NCBI GenBank assembly: GCA_020381345.1
Contig: GCA_020381345.1_3636.1
Direction: 5' to 3' (one strand)
Length of the DNA: 64,000 bases
From: a phage
Position 1 is the stretch's first letter. Each line of letters begins with the position of its first letter. The notes beneath the pieces were generated by a model. It worked only from the letters and a program-made list of their open reading frames with translations. It was not told where the DNA came from and ran no database searches. Of the stretch, positions 6,710 through 51,439 are shown piece by piece. The position numbers and the translations under genes were made by a program.

Positions 6710-7894
6710 CTCTTCAGGTCTGTGTGGGAAAAGCCGACCCCTCCGGCGGCGGGGAGGTGGTCAATTAAAAAATTTACGGGGTATATGAAGCGCTCTTCAG
6801 GTAAGGCATGTATTATGGGATGAAACCCTCTTCAGGCAATGATATTTGTGGGTGTGATATTTGCTGGAAAGCCAGATATGACGGGACTCCCGGCGGGGCA
6901 GGGGTAGTACAGACAGGGAAAATATGGGGATGTAGTTGGGTGAATTGATCGGTCAGGTAGGGTATGGAATATGTTACAGGTATGTTAAATATGGAGGGTG
7001 AATATCTGTAGGATTTGTGTGTAAAATCAAAGACTTAAGTGGTGTTGTGGTATTTTCTATAAATAATTCAAGTTTAATAGGTAATATTTGTCCCTATCCA
7101 CTTTGTGTGGTAAACAAATTCAGATGAGATTGGTTTACAAGTGTATACATAATATACAAATTAAAGATACAAGAAACCCCCCTCCCCCTTCGGCTACCAT
7201 TCACCTTTTCCTCTGACTGGTACTTAAACACTTATTCAGACTCTTCAGGTTATCACCCATATATCATATGGCAGTGACTGGTGTCCTCCGGCCCCTCTTT
7301 CGTCACCCGTCCGCTTCGCCATGCTAATGCCATAGCCAAAGGTTCGGTTGTTCACCCTGTTCACTCAGGTGTATCTCCATACCCCTTCAAACCGAAGAGA
7401 ACAGAAAACCCGAATTACTCGGTAAAAGAAAAGAGAAGAACTTAATTTTATCAGGATAGGCAAGAATGTCAAGGCATGACTGCTCACTAAACAAGCAAAC
7501 AGTCATGTGTGGGAGGTAAGTGATTGTGGTTGTAGGAAATTTAGTTGAAAGATGTGTTATAGGTGCTTCCAGCACTTTAGCCGGGCAGCTAATTGTGTGT
7601 CAGTCCAGCGGTTCATCCTCTACTTCACTGAAATCAATGTTCATGGTCTCTTCCCAACCATCGATCTCAGCACAAGAGTGGAGTTCTTTAGGGTTTACTC
7701 CCAAAGCCTCAGCAACAGAGTCTATATTTAACACCTCTGGCAGGTATGATTCATCGAATTCAAGGTAAATCAGGCCACGAGTATTGTCAGCTCCACCAAA
7801 TAGTTCTATCTTCATGAAATCTCCTTCGGAAAATGAGTGTGAACAGGATTATACGTCCCAATGCGCAGGAATTATGCACGTTTGCCTCTTCAGG
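6710..7894 (+). repeat. five same-strand copies of CTCTTCAGG
   Basis: Exact 9-mer at 6710, 6793, 6828, 7241 and 7886; copies at 6710, 6828 and 7886 are followed by TGTGGG and the one at 6793 by TGGG; two are followed by CCGGCGG(C)GGG tracts. Confidence 0.6.
7600..7815 (-). CDS. hypothetical acidic protein (71 aa)
   Basis: ORF track; strongly acidic composition. Confidence 0.45.
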   Translation of the reverse strand: MKIELFGGADNTRGLIYLEFDESYLPEVLNIDSVAEALGVNPKELHSCAEIDGWEETMNIDFSEVEDEPLD

Positions 7895-40970: not shown

Positions 40971-41136
40971 CTTGTCTCACAAGCTCGTAGAGCTCACCTT
41001 GGCTTGTCTCATAAAGGCAAATACGTTTACCATTGTCCCGATATACATCGACAAGATACGCTGTTTCACCTGCAAACACGACACCACAGGCCAGACATGC
41101 CGCCATGAACAAAATTGCCAACAGAAAATCTTTCAT
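40930..41136 (-). CDS. putative secreted protein or lipoprotein (about 68 aa)
   Basis: Signal-peptide-like MKDFLLAILFMAACLACG; RBS GAGGGGGG; directly downstream of endolysin. Confidence 0.45.
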   Translation of the reverse strand: MKDFLLAILFMAACLACGVVFAGETAYLVDVYRDNGKRICLYETSQGELYELVRQGEAGSCPRTHFFE

Positions 41137-41201
41137 GGTTAAACCCCCCCTCAAACATTTTATGAGGTGACAATACCACTTCCGTGTGGTTATGTCAATG
41201 A

Positions 41202-41672
41202 TTAATCCAGGACAACACCGCCTGCCTTTTTAAACACCTCGATCAACTTCTCGATCTTCTGTTCATGCTGACCATATCCAGCACCAGGTAACGAAGCCCA
41301 GCGGGAACGGCATTTGCGGATAGCCTCGTGGATACGCCCTTCGTCAATGTCGGCGAGAGCCTTGCACTCACGGATCAGTTGCAACGCAATCTTGTCCTGA
41401 CTGGCAGGGCCAAAATCTGGTAATCCTAACTGTTTCATATAGTGTTTAGCGAACTTCTCCAAAACCTGGTAACGCCCAGCAGCGGAGGAGGTAAGTTTAG
41501 CATTTAGCTTAACGTAAACACCGGGATGCTTGCTGTAATCGCTGAACAGCTTGCCACCGACTATGACATCGTATCCCCGATCCTTGGTAGGTTGTCTACC
41601 GTTATCTGTGCCTTCCGAATATGCGATCATATCCAAGAAAGCTTTTCGTTGAATATTTTTATCAAGTTTCAT
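41202..41672 (-). CDS. endolysin, lambda R-like lytic transglycosylase (156 aa)
   Basis: Near colinear match to recalled lambda R (QRKAFLDM..SEGTDNGRQ..GYDVIVGG..GRYQ..WASLPGAGYGQ). Confidence 0.85.
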   Translation of the reverse strand: MKLDKNIQRKAFLDMIAYSEGTDNGRQPTKDRGYDVIVGGKLFSDYSKHPGVYVKLNAKLTSSAAGRYQVLEKFAKHYMKQLGLPDFGPASQDKIALQLIRECKALADIDEGRIHEAIRKCRSRWASLPGAGYGQHEQKIEKLIEVFKKAGGVVLD

Positions 41673-41800
41673 TTTTCATACTCTCCAGTTTACTCATAAC
41701 TAACCCGATCAACAACACTGCATAGTGTGGTTATGTAGGTGCCAATTGAAAAAAAAACCCTCATTCAATTGGCTACCGTTACCTACTAAACCTTCCTACA

Positions 41801-43084
41801 TCATTCCAGAACCTCCCAAGTGTATGGGTTAACATTTCGGACGCAGATACCGACAGGGAATTGGTAGTTGTTGTCTTCTGTCCTTGCTTGATATTTGAAG
41901 GTGACAAACTTGCCGATCATTTCCTGCATCCTGTCATAGCTACGCTCCTCGTGCGTGCCTTTCATCTTCATTTTAACAACAACACCTTCCTTGTCAACAC
42001 AGATAAGAACACCTTCATCATTCTTATCTTTCTCAACGTCAATAACTTTCACCTCTGCGTCGTTGAACTTTTTCCATTTCAATGCTTCAGATGTTCGCTG
42101 ACCATACTCATATTTACCACAGAAGTTACGCATAATGGTACCTTCATATCCCTCAGACATAAATATACCAACAGACTCTTCGCACCGATCAACTGTGTAT
42201 GCAAGCTCTGCATCAACAACCTTAATATGATCAAGCATCAAAGAAGCAATAGCACCATTTGCCTCCATAAGATCCTTACAGCGTCCAGACTCTGTTTCAG
42301 GATCCCACCACACCTTGTCGCTAGGAATATCAAAAATGTGATACTCCAGATCGTAGCTACAGTACCCACCGTAACGCAAATCATCACGAACAGGCTCAAC
42401 ATCGACAGGAATATCTACCTTGTTGAAGTTTTTGTATGTTGATAAGCCTGCCTTAATTGCGGCATGACGGCGTTTTTTATCTGCCTCATAGTCTTTATCG
42501 ATCTCGGCCTGAATCTCTTCCTGTGTGCGCCACCGTTTAGCAAGAGACACTATTTTCTGCAAAGGAAGACCATGAATGTAGAGTTCCCCATCAAGTTGTT
42601 TAATCCCAGTGGTAGAATGGAAAGAACGAAGTTGCTCTAAAAGATTTCCTTGAATAGGGTAGGACTTATTACCACGGGAAATAAATTTAGGCTCACCATT
42701 TTGGAAAACAACAAGCAGACGAAGGCCATCTAACTTACGCAAGATCCAGCAAGGTAGTTTAAGTGCCTTGCCACGCTTCAGGTAGTCATGCACCAGCATG
42801 GGTAAAAGGTCAACACCCTGCTCGCAATCTTCCATGTTTTCAACATACCCCAGACGGACTTGTTTTTCCCACTTGCTGATAGCCTCAAGCTCGGCCTGTT
42901 GCTCAGCTGTAGTCTCGTTGGCACGACCTACGTTCTTAGGTGTGCATACCGTCTCTTTGTACTGCAATTTACCGTCAAGCTTGCCAAACTCTACGATAAC
43001 CTTTTCGCCATCTGTAAATACTTTCCATTGCTGGTAACTTCCATCCTTATTCAGTGCATAAAGTGTTGTTTTGATTTGATGCAT
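41801..43084 (-). CDS. ATP-dependent DNA ligase (427 aa)
   Basis: Adenylation motif I KLDGLR. Confidence 0.7.
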   Translation of the reverse strand: MHQIKTTLYALNKDGSYQQWKVFTDGEKVIVEFGKLDGKLQYKETVCTPKNVGRANETTAEQQAELEAISKWEKQVRLGYVENMEDCEQGVDLLPMLVHDYLKRGKALKLPCWILRKLDGLRLLVVFQNGEPKFISRGNKSYPIQGNLLEQLRSFHSTTGIKQLDGELYIHGLPLQKIVSLAKRWRTQEEIQAEIDKDYEADKKRRHAAIKAGLSTYKNFNKVDIPVDVEPVRDDLRYGGYCSYDLEYHIFDIPSDKVWWDPETESGRCKDLMEANGAIASLMLDHIKVVDAELAYTVDRCEESVGIFMSEGYEGTIMRNFCGKYEYGQRTSEALKWKKFNDAEVKVIDVEKDKNDEGVLICVDKEGVVVKMKMKGTHEERSYDRMQEMIGKFVTFKYQARTEDNNYQFPVGICVRNVNPYTWEVLE

Positions 43085-43353
43085 TACTCTGCCTCTTCCT
43101 TAAAAATTTTAAACATCTCTTCTTTACTCATTACCAACCAGTCTCCCATAAAGTCAACTAACCAATCCCCCTGGTATAAGACCAGGTTACCAAACGGCTC
43201 AACAAGCTCACACATGCGACGAATATCTCTGGTCCGAACAGGTGACCATGTAAACACGCCTGTATCAATCCACCGTTGCAGATCAGATACTGATGAAGAG
43301 CTTCCGTCAAACTGGTGGGCTTCTACAGGTTTAGCAAGATTAAATAACGGCAT
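43084..43353 (-). CDS. hypothetical protein (89 aa)
   Basis: ORF track. Confidence 0.5.
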   Translation of the reverse strand: MPLFNLAKPVEAHQFDGSSSSVSDLQRWIDTGVFTWSPVRTRDIRRMCELVEPFGNLVLYQGDWLVDFMGDWLVMSKEEMFKIFKEEAE

Positions 43354-43678
43354 TGCAGTCCTCCTTCTGTAGTAGGTCTTTTATAGGATAAACAAGTAAG
43401 TGTGGATCGGAATAACGTATAGTCCTATTCTGCCACACTATGAACTTTATTACAACCAAATTTACAATATCTTTATCACCATGTAGCCCAACACACACAT
43501 TTGTCCATATTTTGTGGTTGAAGATCTTGCTATCGATGTAGATTTTAGTGTCAAACTTATCTTCCATTCTACCTATAAGTTTGATCAGCTCCTTCATCTG
43601 ATCCCCAAACACAGCATCGTTTTCAAGATCTCTAGAGTGCTTGTACATAACTATCTGCCTCACTTGCATACTTTCCAC
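43340..43678 (-). CDS. hypothetical protein (112 aa)
   Basis: ORF track. Confidence 0.5.
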   Translation of the reverse strand: MESMQVRQIVMYKHSRDLENDAVFGDQMKELIKLIGRMEDKFDTKIYIDSKIFNHKIWTNVCVGLHGDKDIVNLVVIKFIVWQNRTIRYSDPHLLVYPIKDLLQKEDCNAVI

Positions 43679-43711
43679 AACAAGTAAAGCCGGGTGATCC
43701 CGGCTATGTTG

Positions 43712-44425
43712 TTAAATATACTCTGTTACATCCTTGAAGCTTGAAGGCTTCATGATCTTACCTTTACTGTCAAGGAATATGATAACTTTATTACCGTTGT
43801 AGAATTCTTCCTTGGCAACAAAACCTTCATATCGACCATCAAAGCGTCGTTCAAGATCTTTAATCTCCAACTCGATTAGTTGTTCAGCAGGCATATCTGC
43901 ACTGGCACCGTGTGAATACCGTAGATGGTTGACCCGTGCAAACTTGCTGTCATTCGATTTGAGAACCTTACGCATCATCCCGCACACATCGCCGCGAAGC
44001 TGGAACAGCAAAGCTGTTGACAACTCTGCTAAGCGGTAAGCAGACGCTCTTTGCTTAGAGGTGTTTTTCGCAGCGATCAGTGTATCATAGAACTCGCCGA
44101 TCTTGAACTTAAGACCTCGCGGATTATCAAACAGGTTTGACCACTTTTCGTGATTGTCATTAACAAGATAAGCGGCATAACTTGTGACAACATGAAGATC
44201 GCAGGCCTCTTTTAGCAGGTGATCTCCACCATCACCTTTCTCCAGCTCTTCCAAAACCTCATTGAACTCTTCCTCAATGAAGCTAAGCTGTAATTCGAAT
44301 GGTGTGTATGATTTTTTCACTTTAGCTGCCACACGGTTCCAGTTTTCCACCCAATTGGCAGACCAAAGGTAGTTTTCAGGCTGAGACAGTTTTTCCAGGT
44401 TGTCGATCAGTTTAGTATTCAGCAT
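43712..44425 (-). CDS. hypothetical protein, possible MazG-like NTP pyrophosphohydrolase (237 aa)
   Basis: Acidic stretch FIEEEFNEVLEELEKGD..EACDLH resembles the MazG EExxE..D pattern; weak. Confidence 0.35.
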   Translation of the reverse strand: MLNTKLIDNLEKLSQPENYLWSANWVENWNRVAAKVKKSYTPFELQLSFIEEEFNEVLEELEKGDGGDHLLKEACDLHVVTSYAAYLVNDNHEKWSNLFDNPRGLKFKIGEFYDTLIAAKNTSKQRASAYRLAELSTALLFQLRGDVCGMMRKVLKSNDSKFARVNHLRYSHGASADMPAEQLIELEIKDLERRFDGRYEGFVAKEEFYNGNKVIIFLDSKGKIMKPSSFKDVTEYI

Positions 44426-44438
44426 TAAAGGTCTCCTT

Positions 44439-45200
44439 TTAAAGTTCCATAAAGTTTTCTACAGTTTCAATAAATGCTTTATCAGAGAAAGCGTCAACAG
44501 CACCGTTAAACCATACAGGGATCCCGCGATCCTCATATTGATAAAGGTCGCTACGTGAAATGCCACTTCCATCTGCACTCTGCGAATCATACTTGTTTAC
44601 AATCAGCAGTTTTGTTCCTTTACAAGTAGCAGGAAACAATTCCCAGTTAAAATTAATAACTGTGTTAGAACAACCCACTAGGATCACCATATCATTGCTG
44701 GTGAGAGATGTCAACAGGTCATACATGTCTGTATACTTAGGAGCAACCTCGCCGAAGAACACTACATTGGGCTTAACCCAGGTATACTTGCCTGTATCTA
44801 CCTCCGTGTATCCGATATTTTTAATTACATCATTACCTTCAGCATCTTCGTAGGTGATTTCAGGCAAATACCCGTGGACATGTAAAATATCTTCATGTTT
44901 TACACCAGCACGCTCCAGCAAATCATCTACATTGGTGGTAAGGTTGATCACACGACCAGACCAGCGGGAATACCACTCAGCGATCCGAAGATGTGCAAGG
45001 TTAGGATCAACACTGCCCAGAGCTACACGACGTGCATTGTAAAAGTCATGCACCTTATAGTAGTTCTTGGCAAAGGTGTGGATGTTGCACACCTCATCGA
45101 TGCTGAAATTCTCCCACATTGCAGTGCTACCAGATCGGAAGGTGGGAATACCAGATTCTGCGCTCAAACCAGCACCAGAAATAACAATAAGTCGTCGCAT
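44439..45200 (-). CDS. Sir2-family NAD-dependent deacylase / ADP-ribosyltransferase (253 aa)
   Basis: Sirtuin NAD-binding motif GAGLSAESGIPTFR at the N-terminus. Confidence 0.75.
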   Translation of the reverse strand: MRRLIVISGAGLSAESGIPTFRSGSTAMWENFSIDEVCNIHTFAKNYYKVHDFYNARRVALGSVDPNLAHLRIAEWYSRWSGRVINLTTNVDDLLERAGVKHEDILHVHGYLPEITYEDAEGNDVIKNIGYTEVDTGKYTWVKPNVVFFGEVAPKYTDMYDLLTSLTSNDMVILVGCSNTVINFNWELFPATCKGTKLLIVNKYDSQSADGSGISRSDLYQYEDRGIPVWFNGAVDAFSDKAFIETVENFMEL

Positions 45201-45208
45201 AAATGTCC

Positions 45209-45559
45209 TTAGTAGATGTTTTGTTTGATCTCTATTCCAAACTTCTTGAATGAGTCAGCAGCAAGCATAAATTTACGAGCTGCCGATGGATTAGAAGTAT
45301 GCACGAAAATAATCACGTTGTCAATAAGTGGTGGCTTTCCGAATACAAGTTTCTCCTCTAGCGCAGAGAAGCAGTCGTACCCTTCAAGAACTTCACCTAG
45401 ATCATTGTCAAAATACCATTCAGATACGCGTCTGTAGAGCTTTCTCTTATCATTAAGAAAATCCATAAATTCAGAAGAATTCTTTAGCCACAGAGCGTCT
45501 GGGAGTCCATAATCTGACGGATCTCTAAAATCATCAAGCCACACAATCCACTTCTTCAT
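45209..45559 (-). CDS. hypothetical protein (116 aa)
   Basis: Internal ATG overlaps the RNA ligase stop as ATGA. Confidence 0.45.
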   Translation of the reverse strand: MKKWIVWLDDFRDPSDYGLPDALWLKNSSEFMDFLNDKRKLYRRVSEWYFDNDLGEVLEGYDCFSALEEKLVFGKPPLIDNVIIFVHTSNPSAARKFMLAADSFKKFGIEIKQNIY

Positions 45560-46473
45560 TGCATATAGTCCTCGTTGTGGAAATAGCAGTCCAGTATCTC
45601 GCGACGCTCCTGCTCTAATAAGCAATTCCACACATCTTCTGTATAGTTGCTACGAATAAATTTTACCATACCGTAAAACTCCTCGTCAACACGTTTAAAA
45701 ATATCGTCATCCCAAATCTTCCATGCTTTACCTCTCATTACGGCCTTCCGTGCCAAATAGTATGGAGACTTGATCTTCAGCTGCAGGTCATAAGGGTAGT
45801 AAGGCTTACGGATCATATACCCTTCGCCCCTTGTTTCTGCAGCTAATTCTTTTGCATAGCTGAACGGGATTTCACGCACAGTGTGAGGACGTTTTGCACC
45901 AAGGTATTTGGCAATCCCATCTAAAGCTGCTTCTGGTAGCATTATTCCAGAATCATTATATCTGCAACCTATCAAATATGCGCCATGGTCTTCTTGAACA
46001 ATATGCGGATCTGAAGGGTGACAAATTTCAAACATGAATGTCATGTTTTCATTGCCCATAACCTTCTTGATAAGATCTAAATTACCACATTGCTCTTGGA
46101 TGGTTTCCTTTGCAAGGTTACAATATGGAGAATCAAGAGACCCGGTTGTTGAGAACAATAGTTCACCTTTATGAGATGATACCACACCGAGGAATCCGTT
46201 CTTTTTCTCTACCGCAGTAACAAGTTTACTGTCCGGTAGGTTGGTGGAGTTTTCTCCTAAGTTGAATACTTTTGTGAAAGGCCATGCCACAACATTCCCC
46301 TCATTGCCAACAACAATACCTCGGCACTCCAGTAAACGCGGAGACAAATGCCACAGATTGTTGTAGAATACTTTTCTGGCATATTTATAGATCTTTAATC
46401 CAAGATCTGGATAATACCGACTGGTTACAAGACCTTTGTCTACTAGGTCATCTGCATTAAAATACTTCATCAT
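45556..46473 (-). CDS. Rnl1-like RNA ligase
   Basis: Matches recalled T4 Rnl1 in LECRGI, KVFNLGEN and the nucleotidyl-transfer lysine region EKKNGFL; start placed at ATG with RBS GAGGA. Confidence 0.75.
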   Translation of the reverse strand: MMKYFNADDLVDKGLVTSRYYPDLGLKIYKYARKVFYNNLWHLSPRLLECRGIVVGNEGNVVAWPFTKVFNLGENSTNLPDSKLVTAVEKKNGFLGVVSSHKGELLFSTTGSLDSPYCNLAKETIQEQCGNLDLIKKVMGNENMTFMFEICHPSDPHIVQEDHGAYLIGCRYNDSGIMLPEAALDGIAKYLGAKRPHTVREIPFSYAKELAAETRGEGYMIRKPYYPYDLQLKIKSPYYLARKAVMRGKAWKIWDDDIFKRVDEEFYGMVKFIRSNYTEDVWNCLLEQERREILDCYFHNEDYMQ

Positions 46474-46534
46474 ACGTTCCTCATTTGTCATTTTGTCAGT
46501 CTATCCTGCCACACAAATAACCTAGTGTCAACAC

Positions 46535-46563
46535 TTGAAATTAACAAAACAGTTAGGTATACT
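46535..46563 (+). promoter_or_regulatory. sigma70-like promoter
   Basis: TTGAAA, 17-nt spacer, TATACT in the divergent region between RNA ligase and kinase. Confidence 0.5.
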
Positions 46564-46591
46564 ATCATTAAAATTAAAACGGAGGATTGCT

Positions 46592-47002
46592 ATGTCTAAA
46601 ATGCTATATATCGTGCGTGGTCTGCCAGGGTCTGGCAAATCAACACTGGCAAATGCGCTATCTTTAGAAGGTCTGTATCCACATTTTGAGAACGACATGT
46701 TCTGGTATGACGATGACGGCAATTACAACTGGGATGCAAGTAAAGTAACACTCGCAGCAAAATGGTGCAAAGATAACGTAGAAGATATGATGCGTATGGG
46801 ATACGACCGTATCGTGGTAAGTAATACGTTTACAAAAGAAAAACATGTGCAGGAATATGTTGACATGGCAATCAGTCATGGGTATAGTTATACCGTGATC
46901 GTGGTTGAAAACCGCCACGGTAATAAAAGCATTCATGATGTTCCAGACAAGGTTGTGGATCGTATGGAACGCCAGCTTAAAAACTGCATTAAACTTAAAT
47001 GA
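46592..47002 (+). CDS. P-loop kinase, polynucleotide 5'-kinase-like (136 aa)
   Basis: Walker A GLPGSGKST; RBS GGAGG 6 nt before ATG 46592. Confidence 0.6.
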   Translation: MSKMLYIVRGLPGSGKSTLANALSLEGLYPHFENDMFWYDDDGNYNWDASKVTLAAKWCKDNVEDMMRMGYDRIVVSNTFTKEKHVQEYVDMAISHGYSYTVIVVENRHGNKSIHDVPDKVVDRMERQLKNCIKLK

Positions 47003-47009
47003 GGAATGT

Positions 47010-47564
47010 ATGAAATACTTTGTAACAAGCGACACACACTTTCTCCACCAGCGGGTCATGGAGTTTGATTCATGTCAAAAACACAGATCTCAGTATGATC
47101 ACAATCTTGACAGTATGAATGCGGGAATCATCGCCGAGTGGAACTCTGTTGTGTCACCTGCAGACACTGTGTTCCACTTGGGAGATATTGCGTGCACTAA
47201 TGATAAGAATATCAACAAATTACTTCCAGATATTCTAAATATGTTGAACGGACATATTATTCTTGTTCGTGGCAACCATGACACAAGGACGACTGTCAGA
47301 ATTATGAAAGAGTTCGGTCATGAGGTTGTAGATTATTACGAGCTTCGCCACAACAAGAATTTGATCTGTATGAGCCATTACCAGTTTGCAAAGTGGAACA
47401 GAAAGCCTCACGGATCAGTCCAACTGTTCGGTCATGCTCACGGAACCACACAACAGTTGTTTGGCAGGCAGCTTGATGTCGGTTGGGATGTGTGGGGGAG
47501 ACTCTTACCATTAGAAGAGGCATACCGTACTGCAATGAGTTTTGATATTGACAGCAGGGAGTAA
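47010..47564 (+). CDS. calcineurin-like metallophosphoesterase (184 aa)
   Basis: Motifs SDTHF, GDIA and GNHD; track ORF 46905..47564 is an upstream-extended version of the same frame. Confidence 0.6.
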   Translation: MKYFVTSDTHFLHQRVMEFDSCQKHRSQYDHNLDSMNAGIIAEWNSVVSPADTVFHLGDIACTNDKNINKLLPDILNMLNGHIILVRGNHDTRTTVRIMKEFGHEVVDYYELRHNKNLICMSHYQFAKWNRKPHGSVQLFGHAHGTTQQLFGRQLDVGWDVWGRLLPLEEAYRTAMSFDIDSRE

Positions 47565-47611
47565 TCCCTGCTATTTTAAAGAAAATTGCCACACAAGGAG
47601 AATCAGGAGAT

Positions 47612-47962
47612 ATGAAAGATGGGGATAAGCTGCTATATCTTAAAGTCCCCCTTGAAATACTATCTATGTCAAAAGTTTTGAATGACACAACTGGGGAGGT
47701 TGTTGTTCTTGACTTGTATGACAAGATCGTATACTGCTACCTGCACAACTGGTATAAGCTTGGAGGAAATTCACGCTTCACACCAAGCACAAGGAAAATT
47801 GCAGCAGATGTTGGGATAAAGAAAACAAAAGCAGCAGCGTGCGTTAAAACTTTAGAATGTGCAGGAGTGGTTGAAACATCCACACAAGGGAGAGGTAAAA
47901 GATGCACATTTTCCAAAGTTTTGCCACCAGAAAAAGTTATTCGAATGTCAACAACTGGTTAG
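47612..47962 (+). CDS. putative DNA-binding protein (116 aa)
   Basis: HTH-like segment TRKIAADVGIKKTKAAACVKTLECAGVV; sits just upstream of the iteron array. Confidence 0.5.
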   Translation: MKDGDKLLYLKVPLEILSMSKVLNDTTGEVVVLDLYDKIVYCYLHNWYKLGGNSRFTPSTRKIAADVGIKKTKAAACVKTLECAGVVETSTQGRGKRCTFSKVLPPEKVIRMSTTG

Positions 47963-48035
47963 ACCAGTAAAAACTTAAATATCTGTACTATAAGGATTCG
48001 TATGTTTTATGTTCGCTCTGGAACAGAGGTTAGTA

Positions 48036-48121
48036 ACTGTCCGTGATACGGACACTACTGTCCGTCACGCGGACACATCTGCCCGTAATACGGACACTAA
48101 CTGTCCGTGATACGGACACAT
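48036..48121. repeat. four tandem ~21-22-bp iterons, each a GTCCGT-N4-ACGGAC palindrome
   Basis: Units start at 48036, 48057, 48079 and 48101; the third is degenerate (GCCCGT). Confidence 0.75.
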
Positions 48122-48250
48122 AAAGAATATAACTAAAATAACTAAATAATAAAAAATAAAAGATCTAGTACTTATGGTACTAAAGTACATATACTTAACT
48201 TATGTAGAATATACTAGATCCTAAGTACCATGTTTTAAATTTATTACTTA
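48122..48250. other. AT-rich tract with GTAC-containing palindromes (possible DNA unwinding element)
   Basis: About 130 bp of strongly AT-rich sequence right after the iterons, including AGTACTTATGGTACT. Confidence 0.4.
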
Positions 48251-50499: not shown

Positions 50500-50574
50500 G
50501 CCCTGTTAGCTTAGTGGATAAAGCAGCGGCCTTCTAAGCCGTTGACACTGGTTCGAGTCCAGTACGGGGTGCCA
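50500..50574 (+). tRNA. tRNA-Arg (anticodon TCT)
   Basis: Hand-folded cloverleaf: acceptor GCCCTGT/ACGGGGT, anticodon loop CTTCTAA, T-loop TTCGAGT, encoded CCA. Confidence 0.7.
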
Positions 50575-50704
50575 AGTTCTTTTTAATGTAGCTTACTTTA
50601 GCAGAGTAAATCTTCGGCAAGTGGCGGTAACCACTTTACCGATACCTCATAGTTAGTGGTGAGAACACTAGCTATTTTAAAAAGAATTTAAATATTAGTA
50701 TTTA

Positions 50705-50792
50705 GGTGAGTTAATTCCGTAGGGGTAGCGGGGCAGACTGTAAATCTGTTATCATTGCGATTCGGGTGGTTCGACTCCATCACTCACCACCA
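50705..50792 (+). tRNA. tRNA-Tyr (anticodon GTA), long variable arm
   Basis: Acceptor GGTGAGT/ACTCACC, anticodon loop CTGTAAA, T-loop TTCGACT, CCA; 88 nt. Confidence 0.6.
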
Positions 50793-50906
50793 AATTTATA
50801 TTTTTAAATGCATAAATCATACAGATAATGGCATTGATATTTATCGTCGTTTATACTAGTCACTAACTGCTCGAAAATCAGTGTCATTATCAGTATTGTT
50901 TATAAA

Positions 50907-50997
50907 AGAGGGTAGGGAGCAATGGTGCTCAAGCGGTCTTGAAAACCGTCCCGTTGAGGATTACTCGATGATGGTTCGATTCCATTATCCTCTGCCA
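50907..50997 (+). tRNA. tRNA-Ser (anticodon TGA), type II
   Basis: Acceptor AGAGGGT/ATCCTCT, anticodon loop CTTGAAA, T-loop TTCGATT, CCA; 91 nt. Confidence 0.6.
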
Positions 50998-51095
50998 TAT
51001 TGTTGACCTTGTAATTAAGCGAAAGCCGGAAGCAGAACCGGATTATCAAATGTTACAGTCGTCATCGCCGACTAGCAACATGGTCAACATACTGA

Positions 51096-51192
51096 GCTAG
51101 GTAAGCCCTTTGGCAAGGGCGAGGATTTTTAATCCTGAAAATAGACGAGGTAGTCGTTGAATACATAGGTGGTTCGATTCCATCACCTAGCA
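51096..51192 (+). tRNA. atypical tRNA-like element (97 nt), anticodon uncertain
   Basis: Acceptor GCTAGGT/ACCTAGC, D-arm GCCC/GGGC, T-arm GGTGG-TTCGATT-CCATC, but non-canonical anticodon arm, 29-nt extra arm, A at position 8, no CCA. Confidence 0.35.
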
Positions 51193-51199
51193 CCTTTTT

Positions 51200-51275
51200 G
51201 CTGATGTAGCACAATTGGTAGTGCAATTGATTTGTAATCAATAGGTTGCAGGTTCAAGTCCTGCCATCAGCACCA
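51200..51275 (+). tRNA. tRNA-Thr (anticodon TGT)
   Basis: Acceptor GCTGATG/CATCAGC, anticodon loop TTTGTAA, T-loop TTCAAGT, CCA. Confidence 0.7.
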
Positions 51276-51276
51276 T

Positions 51277-51351
51277 GGCCCTGTAGCTGGAAGGTTCAAG
51301 CAAGCGACTCATAATCGCCAGACGGTGGTTCAATTCCACCCAGGGCCACCA
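51277..51351 (+). tRNA. tRNA-Met or Ile2 (anticodon CAT)
   Basis: Acceptor GGCCCTG/CAGGGCC, anticodon loop CTCATAA, T-arm GGTGG-TTCAATT-CCACC, CCA; D-stem weak. Confidence 0.55.
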
Positions 51352-51362
51352 AATAATGAATA

Positions 51363-51439
51363 CTCCGCGTAGCTCAGCTTGGTAGAGCGCCTGATTTGGG
51401 ATCAGGAGGTCGAGTGTTCGAATCACTCCGTGGAGACCA
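51363..51439 (+). tRNA. tRNA-Pro (anticodon TGG)
   Basis: Acceptor CTCCGCG/CGTGGAG, D-arm GCTC-AGCTTGGTA-GAGC, anticodon loop TTTGGGA, T-loop TTCGAAT, CCA. Confidence 0.7.

Follow-up and report, generated by a model that had tools for sequence, protein, structure and literature searches.

A zinc-less phage sirtuin beside RNA-repair genes in an rV5-like Escherichia coli phage

We analyzed a 64,000-nucleotide stretch of phage DNA (NCBI GenBank assembly GCA_020381345.1, contig GCA_020381345.1_3636.1), called here the window, which belongs to a Vequintavirus (an rV5-like E. coli phage). A minus-strand gene in the window encodes a Sir2-family protein (a sirtuin) that has an intact predicted active site, has lost its zinc site, sits in an operon-like run of genes and is recurrently linked, through its relatives in other phages, to RNA-repair enzymes. 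We tentatively favor the view that this sirtuin is an active enzyme consuming nicotinamide adenine dinucleotide (NAD+) in a tRNA heal-and-seal module, where it would be a non-homologous analogue of KptA/Tpt1 and the neighboring cREC and MazG-like proteins would handle the cyclic-phosphate chemistry and the ADP-ribose by-product. The gene and this leading hypothesis are both in the literature already; what we found is an annotated gene re-identified.

Identity, active site and descent of the sirtuin

The sirtuin gene occupies positions 44439 to 45200 as exactly one intact open reading frame (ORF), stop codon included. It starts with ATG, has an AAGGA ribosome-binding site 6 to 7 nucleotides (nt) before the start codon and encodes 253 amino acids (aa). 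The product matched the Pfam family SIR2 (PF02146; E 6.9e-28, 98 bits against a cut-off of 24), PHROG 2162, "Sir2" (E 2e-108), and, in a PDB sequence search, the E. coli CobB structure 1s5p (E 2.4e-21). The original prediction, made from the sequence alone, had been based on a sirtuin NAD-binding motif, and we could confirm it: GAGLSAESGIPTFR forms residues 9 to 22 (coding positions 45135 to 45176, minus strand) and fits the Rossmann NAD-binding motif GAGxSxxxGIPxFR. An AlphaFold model of the protein had a predicted local distance difference test (pLDDT) score of 89.9 and a predicted template modeling (pTM) score of 0.88. The top 50 Foldseek matches to this model were sirtuins only, led by CobB, Sir2Af1 and SIRT5, with CobB at E 1e-18 and template modeling (TM) scores of 0.75/0.83. 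The ORF is, beyond doubt, a genuine sirtuin. Because it corresponds to gp080 of phage rV5, annotated "Sir2 (NAD-dependent deacetylase)," the gene has long been on record there as Sir2-like, and our observation re-identifies a known gene.

We assessed residue conservation in an alignment of 31 homologues with 50 to 93% identity. Invariant in all 31 were G9, A10, G11, S16, G17, F21 and R22 of the NAD motif; F53, Y54, R57 and R58; the consecutive T89-N90-V91-D92; H109 and G110; K143, P144, V146, F148, F149 and E151 in the segment K143-P-N-V-V-F-F-G-E151, which includes the FGE loop; and G176, S178, N179 (in the segment G176-C-S-N179) and N202. H109 aligned with the catalytic histidine of CobB, and C38 aligned with the CobB pocket residue A76. 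The class III pair Y54-x-x-R57 was likewise evident, F53-Y54-N-A-R57-R58 aligning with FYNARR in CobB and FYHYRR in SIRT5. Among 14 jumbo-phage relatives compared, most had H54 (71%) and L57 (79%) in place of Y54 and R57. Judged by these residues, the phage sirtuin is apparently catalytically competent and NAD+ consuming. It shares with CobB and SIRT5 the fold, the NAD motif, the N and D of TQNxD, the catalytic histidine, the FGE loop and the Y-x-x-R anion-binding pair. It differs from CobB in having none of the four zinc cysteines, in having T for Q in TQNxD and GCSN for GTSG, and in being phage encoded within an RNA-ligase operon.

The loss of the zinc site is a property of the clade. The 35-residue segment from the HG to the KPN motif contained no cysteine in the window protein, the Cys4 zinc module (CxxC...CxxC) having been lost. 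Across 63 full-length viral relatives, the segment held no cysteine in 50, one in 11 and two in 2, and the equal-length segment of 53 cellular relatives held 4 to 5. An alignment check proposed in the original prediction thus has a split outcome: the catalytic histidine, H109, is present and invariant, but the window protein and the rest of the phage clade lack the four zinc cysteines. In the AlphaFold model, the former zinc segment formed a confident three-stranded small domain whose β-strands had pLDDT scores of 94 to 96. On the evidence of the model, the zinc ribbon has apparently become a metal-free sheet rather than been deleted. Skliros et al. (2016; PMC5107563) examined the finger (zinc-binding) domain of the KVP40-type phage sirtuin and proposed salt bridges as possible stabilizers.

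We then compared residues among four groups: the phage clade, the jumbo-phage versions, Marinobacterium-like sequences and zinc-bearing cellular relatives. The phage clade had nearly all pocket residues in common with the cellular relatives and differed by Q89T, by GCSN in place of GTSG and by the cysteine loss; the Q of the (T/S)QNxD motif was T89 across the clade, with N and D kept. In a rough neighbor-joining tree rooted on CobB, all of the TTNVD/zinc-less sequences fell into one clade nested within the zinc-bearing ones. Zinc loss, Q89T and GCSN are therefore derived. The nearest cellular relatives came from Campylobacterota, Verrucomicrobia and alpha-proteobacteria and carry both CxxC...CxxC and the same internal IGY motif. 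We considered whether the gene might be a recent capture of a host cobB and rejected this, as the window protein is only 27.8% identical to E. coli CobB and its clade lies among the compact zinc-bearing sirtuins of those three bacterial groups. The protein also scored below the cut-off of every NCBIfam CobB model tried (NF040867, NF001753 and related models; 123 against 243, 105 against 320 and 94 against 318 bits).

Compact zinc-less sirtuins were also found in cellular genomes. These came from Marinobacterium (loci L081-L099 and L123 in our numbering), Haliea (L092) and Pseudochelatococcus/Chelatococcus (L106, L109, L112 and L116). Most Marinobacterium copies had the phage-type TTNVD, and a few had a TSNVD variant.

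The original prediction had drawn an analogy with the NAD-consuming Sir2 effectors of bacterial defense, and this analogy was not supported. Defense Sir2 NADases (ThsA, DSR1/DSR2, Sir2-HerA and SPARSA) belong to the same superfamily and likewise consume NAD+. The phage sirtuin, however, comes from a lytic phage and consists of just one domain (253 aa), with no SLOG, HerA or pAgo domain, no large extra domain and no defense-type sensor or partner. A PADLOC scan matched no defense Sir2 model, its lone match being a nonsignificant one to an unrelated candidate model (E 0.009, 13 bits). That result, together with the PF02146 assignment, the retained YxxR pair and the placement by Pfam, PDB and Foldseek with deacylase-type sirtuins such as CobB and SIRT5, led us to reject a defense-type Sir2. 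The accompanying suggestion that the protein interferes with NAD-dependent immunity found no specific support.

RNA-repair genes beside the sirtuin and its relatives

The claim that the phage Sir2 gene stands beside RNA-repair genes held up well. The sirtuin, an Rnl1-type RNA ligase, a cREC protein, a P-loop kinase, a MazG-like protein and a phosphoesterase all (6 of 6) lie within 3.9 kb of the window (43712 to 47564). Iyer, Burroughs, Anantharaman and Aravind (2022; Viruses 14:1977, PMC9503650, section 3.7.3) had described a type 2 sirtuin-centered phage RNA-repair neighborhood, "prototyped by Escherichia phage V5 and Proteus phage Mydo," that comprises a sirtuin, a T4-like RNA ligase, cREC, a nucleotide kinase and a MazG-superfamily pyrophosphatase, with or without a calcineurin-like phosphoesterase. 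The window holds this same locus with all listed parts and no substantive difference, in a genome 98.5% identical to the V5 prototype. Those authors proposed that the sirtuin acts like KptA/Tpt1, removing a 2'-phosphate at the expense of NAD+, and that its partners resolve a cyclic phosphate or break down ADP-ribose cyclic phosphate. To their account our analysis adds the zinc-site loss, Q89T, the retained YxxR pair and the acidic isoelectric point (pI), as well as the presence of the clade in Marinobacterium and in Phapecoctavirus-like phages without RNA-repair neighbors.

To see how often the linkage recurs, we surveyed 79 loci with sirtuin relatives, mostly on viral contigs and in phage records, using iterated profiles of the window neighbors and Pfam scans. 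In 12 Vequintavirinae-like loci, representing about 4 to 5 lineages, Rnl1, kinase, phosphoesterase and MazG-like genes lay within ~3 kb, and cREC was present in 10 of the 12. In 31 T5-like loci, no RNA ligase was found within 10 kb of Sir2, and a gene for an HAD_SAK_2 (PF18143) "Swiss-army-knife RNA-repair" phosphatase stood 0 to 460 bp downstream of it. A 279-kb phage had Sir2 near RlaP and a Thg1-like tRNA 5'-repair enzyme, and a 381-kb phage had a metallophosphoesterase and an RNA_ligase (PF09414) around it. Sir2 and metallophosphoesterase genes overlapped on a small contig (L079, 4576 to 5840), and a metagenome-assembled genome (MAG) contig from Campylobacterota (L160, 186 to 2121) had cREC followed by two Sir2 genes, of 293 aa and 236 aa, the latter with its zinc cysteines kept. 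We favor the RNA-repair reading because relatives of the sirtuin adjoin unrelated RNA-repair enzymes in other phage lineages; the association of a single clade with unrelated RNA end-processing enzymes across phage backbones is the strongest evidence for such a role.

Several other genes recurred at these loci. In T5-like phages (L001, L009-L028 and others), two tandem DUF7415 genes always followed Sir2 and HAD_SAK_2, 0.5 to 1.4 kb downstream of Sir2, and at L035, L036 and L057 the DUF7415 pair was present without HAD_SAK_2. Phapecoctavirus-like loci (L003, L005, L038, L039, L041, L042 and L045) had another conserved block, which starts ~2.5 kb upstream of Sir2 and ends 0.3 kb beyond it on the downstream side. 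It consists of a Dcm-like methyltransferase, a ~213-aa protein ("AYQVDRDDxEGSVVVF...HGLxARRxGA"), a ~180-aa cysteine-containing protein ("SDCETCG"), Sir2 and a ~85-aa protein. No Pfam family matched the three uncharacterized proteins of this block. A DUF7275/DUF7277 protein whose N terminus resembles a minimal nucleotidyltransferase (GS...DxD) was encoded 2 to 3 kb upstream of Sir2 at L005 (4759 to 5688), L066 (KVP40; 7099 to 7860) and L039 (6981 to 7910) and may be a further recurring Sir2 partner.

The mechanism that we consider originates with Iyer et al. and is already in print as a prediction (PMC9503650). The break made in a tRNA by a host anticodon nuclease or toxin would have a 2',3'-cyclic phosphate on one side and a 5'-OH on the other. 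The cREC protein, the metallophosphoesterase or both would open the cyclic phosphate, the P-loop kinase would phosphorylate the 5'-OH and the Rnl1-type ligase would seal the break. The sirtuin would then move ADP-ribose from NAD+ to the remaining 2'-phosphate, releasing nicotinamide and ADP-ribose 1'',2''-cyclic phosphate; Tpt1/KptA chemistry would thus be performed by a non-homologous fold. Finally, cREC and the MazG-like pyrophosphatase would degrade the ADP-ribose by-product.

This scheme resembles known pathways in part. The likeness to Tpt1/KptA and the fungal and plant Trl1 pathway lies in the proposed chemistry, in which a phosphate oxygen attacks C1'' of NAD+ and nicotinamide is released, and in the proposed logic of a cyclic phosphodiesterase, a kinase, an Rnl1-family ligase and an NAD-dependent remover of the 2'-phosphate. 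KptA has an ADP-ribosyltransferase fold and the phage sirtuin a Rossmann sirtuin fold; with no homology between them, the sirtuin is an analogue at most and not a member of that family. The T4 pair Pnkp and Rnl1, which counters the anticodon nuclease PrrC, resembles the window in combining an Rnl1-family ligase, a 5'-kinase and 3'-end healing in a lytic coliphage. In the window, however, two separate genes encode the kinase and the phosphatase, the latter being calcineurin-like, whereas that of T4 belongs to the HAD family; moreover, T4 lacks a sirtuin, a cREC and a MazG-like partner, and the window has all three. A bolder version of the proposal, which we regard as doubtful, is that the zinc-less phage sirtuin would be the first sirtuin to act on nucleic acid, as an NAD+-dependent RNA 2'-phosphotransferase or by ADP-ribosylation of RNA ends, and that together with cREC, the P-loop kinase and the Rnl1-family ligase it would rebuild the chemistry of fungal and plant Trl1 and Tpt1 from non-homologous parts.

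As a crude test, we compared the distribution of KptA and of the sirtuin in phages and found the two to be roughly complementary. The sirtuin clade was present in 1012 of 50,697 phage records (~2%), mostly from Escherichia and Salmonella phages and including T5-like, rV5-like, PVP-SE1-like and KVP40-like phages. KptA homologues were found in 98 phage records, mostly from Erwinia, Dickeya and Klebsiella jumbo phages and Clostridioides phages, with none from Escherichia or Salmonella phages. Among the matches listed, no phage record had both. The neighbors of the KptA genes in three phages, scanned with Pfam and with our own hidden Markov models, included no recognizable cREC, Rnl1 or kinase-type partner.

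RNA repair weighed against other roles

A number of observations speak against a role in RNA repair. The residues that recognize acyl-lysine (Y54, R57, the FGE loop and C38) are as invariant as in the zinc-bearing cellular relatives, and the protein is acidic (pI 4.9; family median 5.3, range 4.6 to 6.1), which is unusual for an RNA-binding enzyme. The T4-type Pnkp/Rnl1 pathway leaves no 2'-phosphate, and the host E. coli has a KptA (kptA) of its own. About 15 Phapecoctavirus-like loci had no recognizable RNA-repair neighbor within 10 kb. Every Marinobacterium genome returned had a zinc-less orthologue, mostly with TTNVD, in an ordinary chromosomal setting without an RNA-repair partner, and at the 2 loci viewed in detail Sir2 had the same two large conserved genes as neighbors, a putative 2-oxoacid:ferredoxin oxidoreductase; membership of the sirtuin clade therefore does not imply a link to RNA repair. 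The argument from context is also partly circular, because cREC, HAD_SAK_2 and RlaP are themselves context-based predictions of the same authors. Our literature search found no enzymatic or genetic test of an RNA-repair or deacylase role for the sirtuin, nor of cREC.

Much of this evidence would suit a CobB-like protein lysine deacylase (desuccinylase, demalonylase or deacetylase) acting on host or phage proteins during infection, an explanation that is strong and nearly as likely as RNA repair. It keeps alive the suggestion in the original prediction that the sirtuin modifies host or phage proteins. Acetyl-CoA synthetase would be one possible target, and the adjoining lysine-nucleotidyl-transferases (the RNA and DNA ligases) would be others; on this view, the RNA-repair genes would be neighbors because they belong to the same early "auxiliary metabolism" block, not because they serve the same pathway. 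E. coli CobB and SIRT5 are the top sequence and structure matches, and the YxxR pair, catalytic histidine, FGE loop and C38 are kept exactly as in the zinc-bearing cellular relatives. An acidic pI is something the protein has in common with many sirtuins, its zinc-less Marinobacterium orthologues lie in a housekeeping context, and the Phapecoctavirus-type loci can do without RNA-repair neighbors. Such a role has also been published for the KVP40-type phage sirtuin, which Skliros et al. (PMC5107563) proposed to deacetylate host proteins, for example, acetyl-CoA synthetase, and in PVP-SE1-type phages a DNA ligase gene directly follows Sir2. Several features fit a deacylase poorly, however. The zinc module, which forms one wall of the peptide cleft, has been remodeled, the clade has its own changes, Q89T and GCSN, near the NAD site, and the scores fall far under all NCBIfam CobB cut-offs. 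The E. coli host already has a CobB, only 27.8% identical, and chance is a poor explanation for the repeated association of the sirtuin with unrelated RNA end-processing enzymes in several phage lineages.

Other neighbors suggest a role with small molecules, in which the sirtuin would act on NAD or ADP-ribose derivatives, destroying or rerouting an immune signal or an NAD breakdown product or rebuilding NAD+ through nicotinamide base exchange, with the kinase, phosphoesterase, cREC and MazG-like protein as metabolic partners. All of these partners are generic nucleotide- and phosphate-processing enzymes, and ADP-ribose cyclic phosphate is a predicted substrate of cREC (PMC9503650). On a phage-like Bacilli MAG contig (L100, 4664 to 8723), a relative of the sirtuin followed NADAR and NadV genes, and at L067 another adjoined a nucleoside 2-deoxyribosyltransferase-like gene; the NADAR and NadV contexts point to NAD/ADP-ribose metabolism more generally. 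In Salmonella phage PVP-SE1 (L002, 1 to 2476), a NadV-like (nicotinamide phosphoribosyltransferase-like) gene and a Prs-like (ribose-phosphate pyrophosphokinase-like) gene, a pair resembling a phage NAD+-reconstitution pathway, lie ~6 kb from the Sir2/RNA-ligase cluster. We nevertheless consider a small-molecule role improbable. None of the known anti-defense proteins is of this kind, and the known phage NAD-restoring pathways, NARP1 to NARP3, rely on other enzymes (PMC13464706). The linked gene in the window encodes a bona fide RNA ligase, those elsewhere encode Thg1 and RlaP, and the rV5 annotation has no NAD-synthesis gene in the part that corresponds to positions 1 to 56000 of the window. 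We also considered NARP3 as an experimental link for the T5-like phage sirtuin and dropped it, since the NARP3 paper (PMC13464706) concerns PnuC- and NadR-like genes.

The sirtuin might, finally, be a mono-ADP-ribosyltransferase that modifies proteins (or nucleic acid) for host takeover, functionally like Alt, ModA and ModB of T4 or like SirTM. Protein ADP-ribosylation is established for some sirtuins (cited in PMC9503650), and the predicted active site is intact. This role seems very unlikely nonetheless: the catalytic histidine and deacylase-type pocket are retained, the context holds no pointer to a transcription or translation takeover target, and the neighbors scanned yielded neither a macrodomain nor another reversing enzyme. 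A Macro domain, the partner of SirTM-type proteins, was absent from nine neighbors scanned with Pfam and seven scanned with PHROGs, and Iyer et al. likewise state that the neighborhood has no macrodomain partner (PMC9503650).

The question has some reach, as the clade occurs in phages used as models and in therapy (T5-like, rV5-like, PVP-SE1-like and KVP40-like). If the sirtuin does act in RNA repair, sirtuin chemistry would extend from proteins to RNA, there would be a second, non-homologous route to 2'-phosphate removal, and the contest between phages and tRNA-cutting defenses would have an extra player. If it is a plain deacylase, phages would reset the acylation of host or phage proteins during infection. 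An RNA-acting sirtuin is already in print as a prediction, and its demonstration would be the new part.

The gene run and other features of the window

The features of the window are listed in Table 1. The minus-strand run begins with the RNA ligase and continues with cREC (4-nt overlap), Sir2 (after 8 nt), the MazG-like gene (after 13 nt) and a 33-nt gap containing a hairpin. Two small ORFs follow (43084 to 43678), and the ATP-dependent DNA ligase, with a 1-nt overlap, ends the run.

Table 1. Features in and near the sirtuin gene run, with positions in the window
Feature	Position	Strand	Basis
ATP-dependent DNA ligase, downstream end of the co-directional run	41801..43084	minus	Pfam, PHROG, rV5 annotation
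Two conserved small ORFs, no assigned function, between the MazG-like gene and the DNA ligase	43340-43678, 43084-43353	minus	ORF list, rV5 comparison
Perfect 7-bp GC-rich hairpin (AGCCGGG...CCCGGCT) with T-rich tail	43688..43705	minus	Lies in the 33 nt separating the MazG-like gene from the ORF that follows it
MazG-like (all-alpha NTP pyrophosphatase superfamily) protein, 237 aa	43712..44425	minus	PHROG 671 "nucleotide pyrophosphohydrolase" E 5e-22
Sir2-family protein (253 aa, zinc-less, CobB/class III descent)	44439..45200	minus	Pfam, PHROG, PDB and AlphaFold/Foldseek matches
cREC (cyclic-phosphate-processing receiver-like) protein, 116 aa	45209..45559	minus	Pfam cREC_REC PF20274 E 1.6e-13; PHROG 1479; = rV5 gp079, 351 nt
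Rnl1-type (T4 RnlA-like) RNA ligase, 311 aa	45556..46491	minus	Pfam RNA_lig_T4_1 E 9e-15; PHROG 562 E 9e-66; = rV5 gp078
Stand-alone P-loop kinase, 136 aa from ATG, divergent from the RNA ligase	46592..47002	plus	Pfam AAA_33 E 1.7e-10; PHROG 2071; = rV5 gp077
Calcineurin-like metallophosphoesterase, 184 aa	47010..47564	plus	Pfam Metallophos_2 and Metallophos; PHROG 547 E 2e-52; PDB 1xm7 E 2e-10; = rV5 gp076
Phage tRNA cluster, 6-7 genes, ~3 kb from the repair genes	50500..51439	plus	ARAGORN, Rfam, rV5 annotation

The flanks of the sirtuin gene were largely as first described. The 116-aa protein on one side is indeed there, but it is not the unknown it had been taken for: it is a cREC protein that keeps the acidic motifs LDDxRxP and FDxDLG, as well as VH[ST]xNP. 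The mechanically called ORF (45209 to 45631, minus strand) has a GTG start and 140 aa and would overlap the RNA ligase gene by 76 nt. Starting at the ATG at 45559 instead yields 116 aa, the product annotated for rV5; since this ATG overlaps the ligase stop codon by 4 nt (ATGA), translational coupling of cREC with the ligase is suggested by the sequence. On the other side, the possible MazG-like protein proved a sound guess. Its N-terminal part bears an EExxE...D motif, over which a profile of the protein found HisE (1yvw, MazG superfamily) as the best, weak PDB match (E 0.05); there was no Pfam match, and a single-sequence PDB search came back empty. Iyer et al. assign the MazG-like protein of the neighborhood to the MazG superfamily (PMC9503650).

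The C-terminal ~90 residues of the MazG-like protein (~150 to 237) were conserved too, with invariant S157-N-D159-x-K161, E187, E192-x-R194, G197-x-Y199 and G222-K-I-x-K-P227. No Pfam or PDB family matched this extension, which, judging by its conservation, may be an uncharacterized domain fused to the pyrophosphatase module.

The RNA ligase has a K-K-N-G sequence as its candidate nucleotidyltransferase motif I and scored 38 bits against TIGR02308, whose cut-off is 242. PDB sequence searches with the ligase and the kinase gave no usable match. The kinase also matched PHROG 505, "polynucleotide kinase," more weakly (E 8e-10); it is a candidate RNA 5'-OH kinase, although family assignment alone is no proof of an RNA substrate. 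The metallophosphoesterase is a candidate end-healing enzyme for 2',3'-cyclic phosphates or 3'-phosphates. The hairpin may close the ligase-cREC-Sir2-MazG unit as a terminator or attenuator, although a promoter and terminator scan of 41000 to 48200 gave counts that match shuffle expectation, and the hairpin is singled out by its position only.

Phage tRNAs, alongside host tRNAs, are plausible repair substrates. Within the tRNA cluster, ARAGORN called a 99-nt tRNA-like gene at 51096 to 51194 with a four-base anticodon (atcc), to which Rfam gave 35.5 bits. A tRNA found by Rfam at 50705 to 50789, probably the tRNA-Tyr of rV5, was missed by ARAGORN, and a tRNA-Ser at 50907 to 50997 was called by ARAGORN alone.

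Identity over the 4 kb around Sir2 was 99.1% with E. coli O157 typing phage 14 and 98.5% with phage rV5, and in 118 of 121 related records a single match spanned at least 80% of those 4 kb. Over the same region, 18 GenBank records (MG0656xx, "Campylobacter phage C7, C9, A112b ...," host Campylobacter jejuni) were 97 to 98% identical to E. coli Vequintaviruses; these are probably mislabeled or contaminant assemblies.

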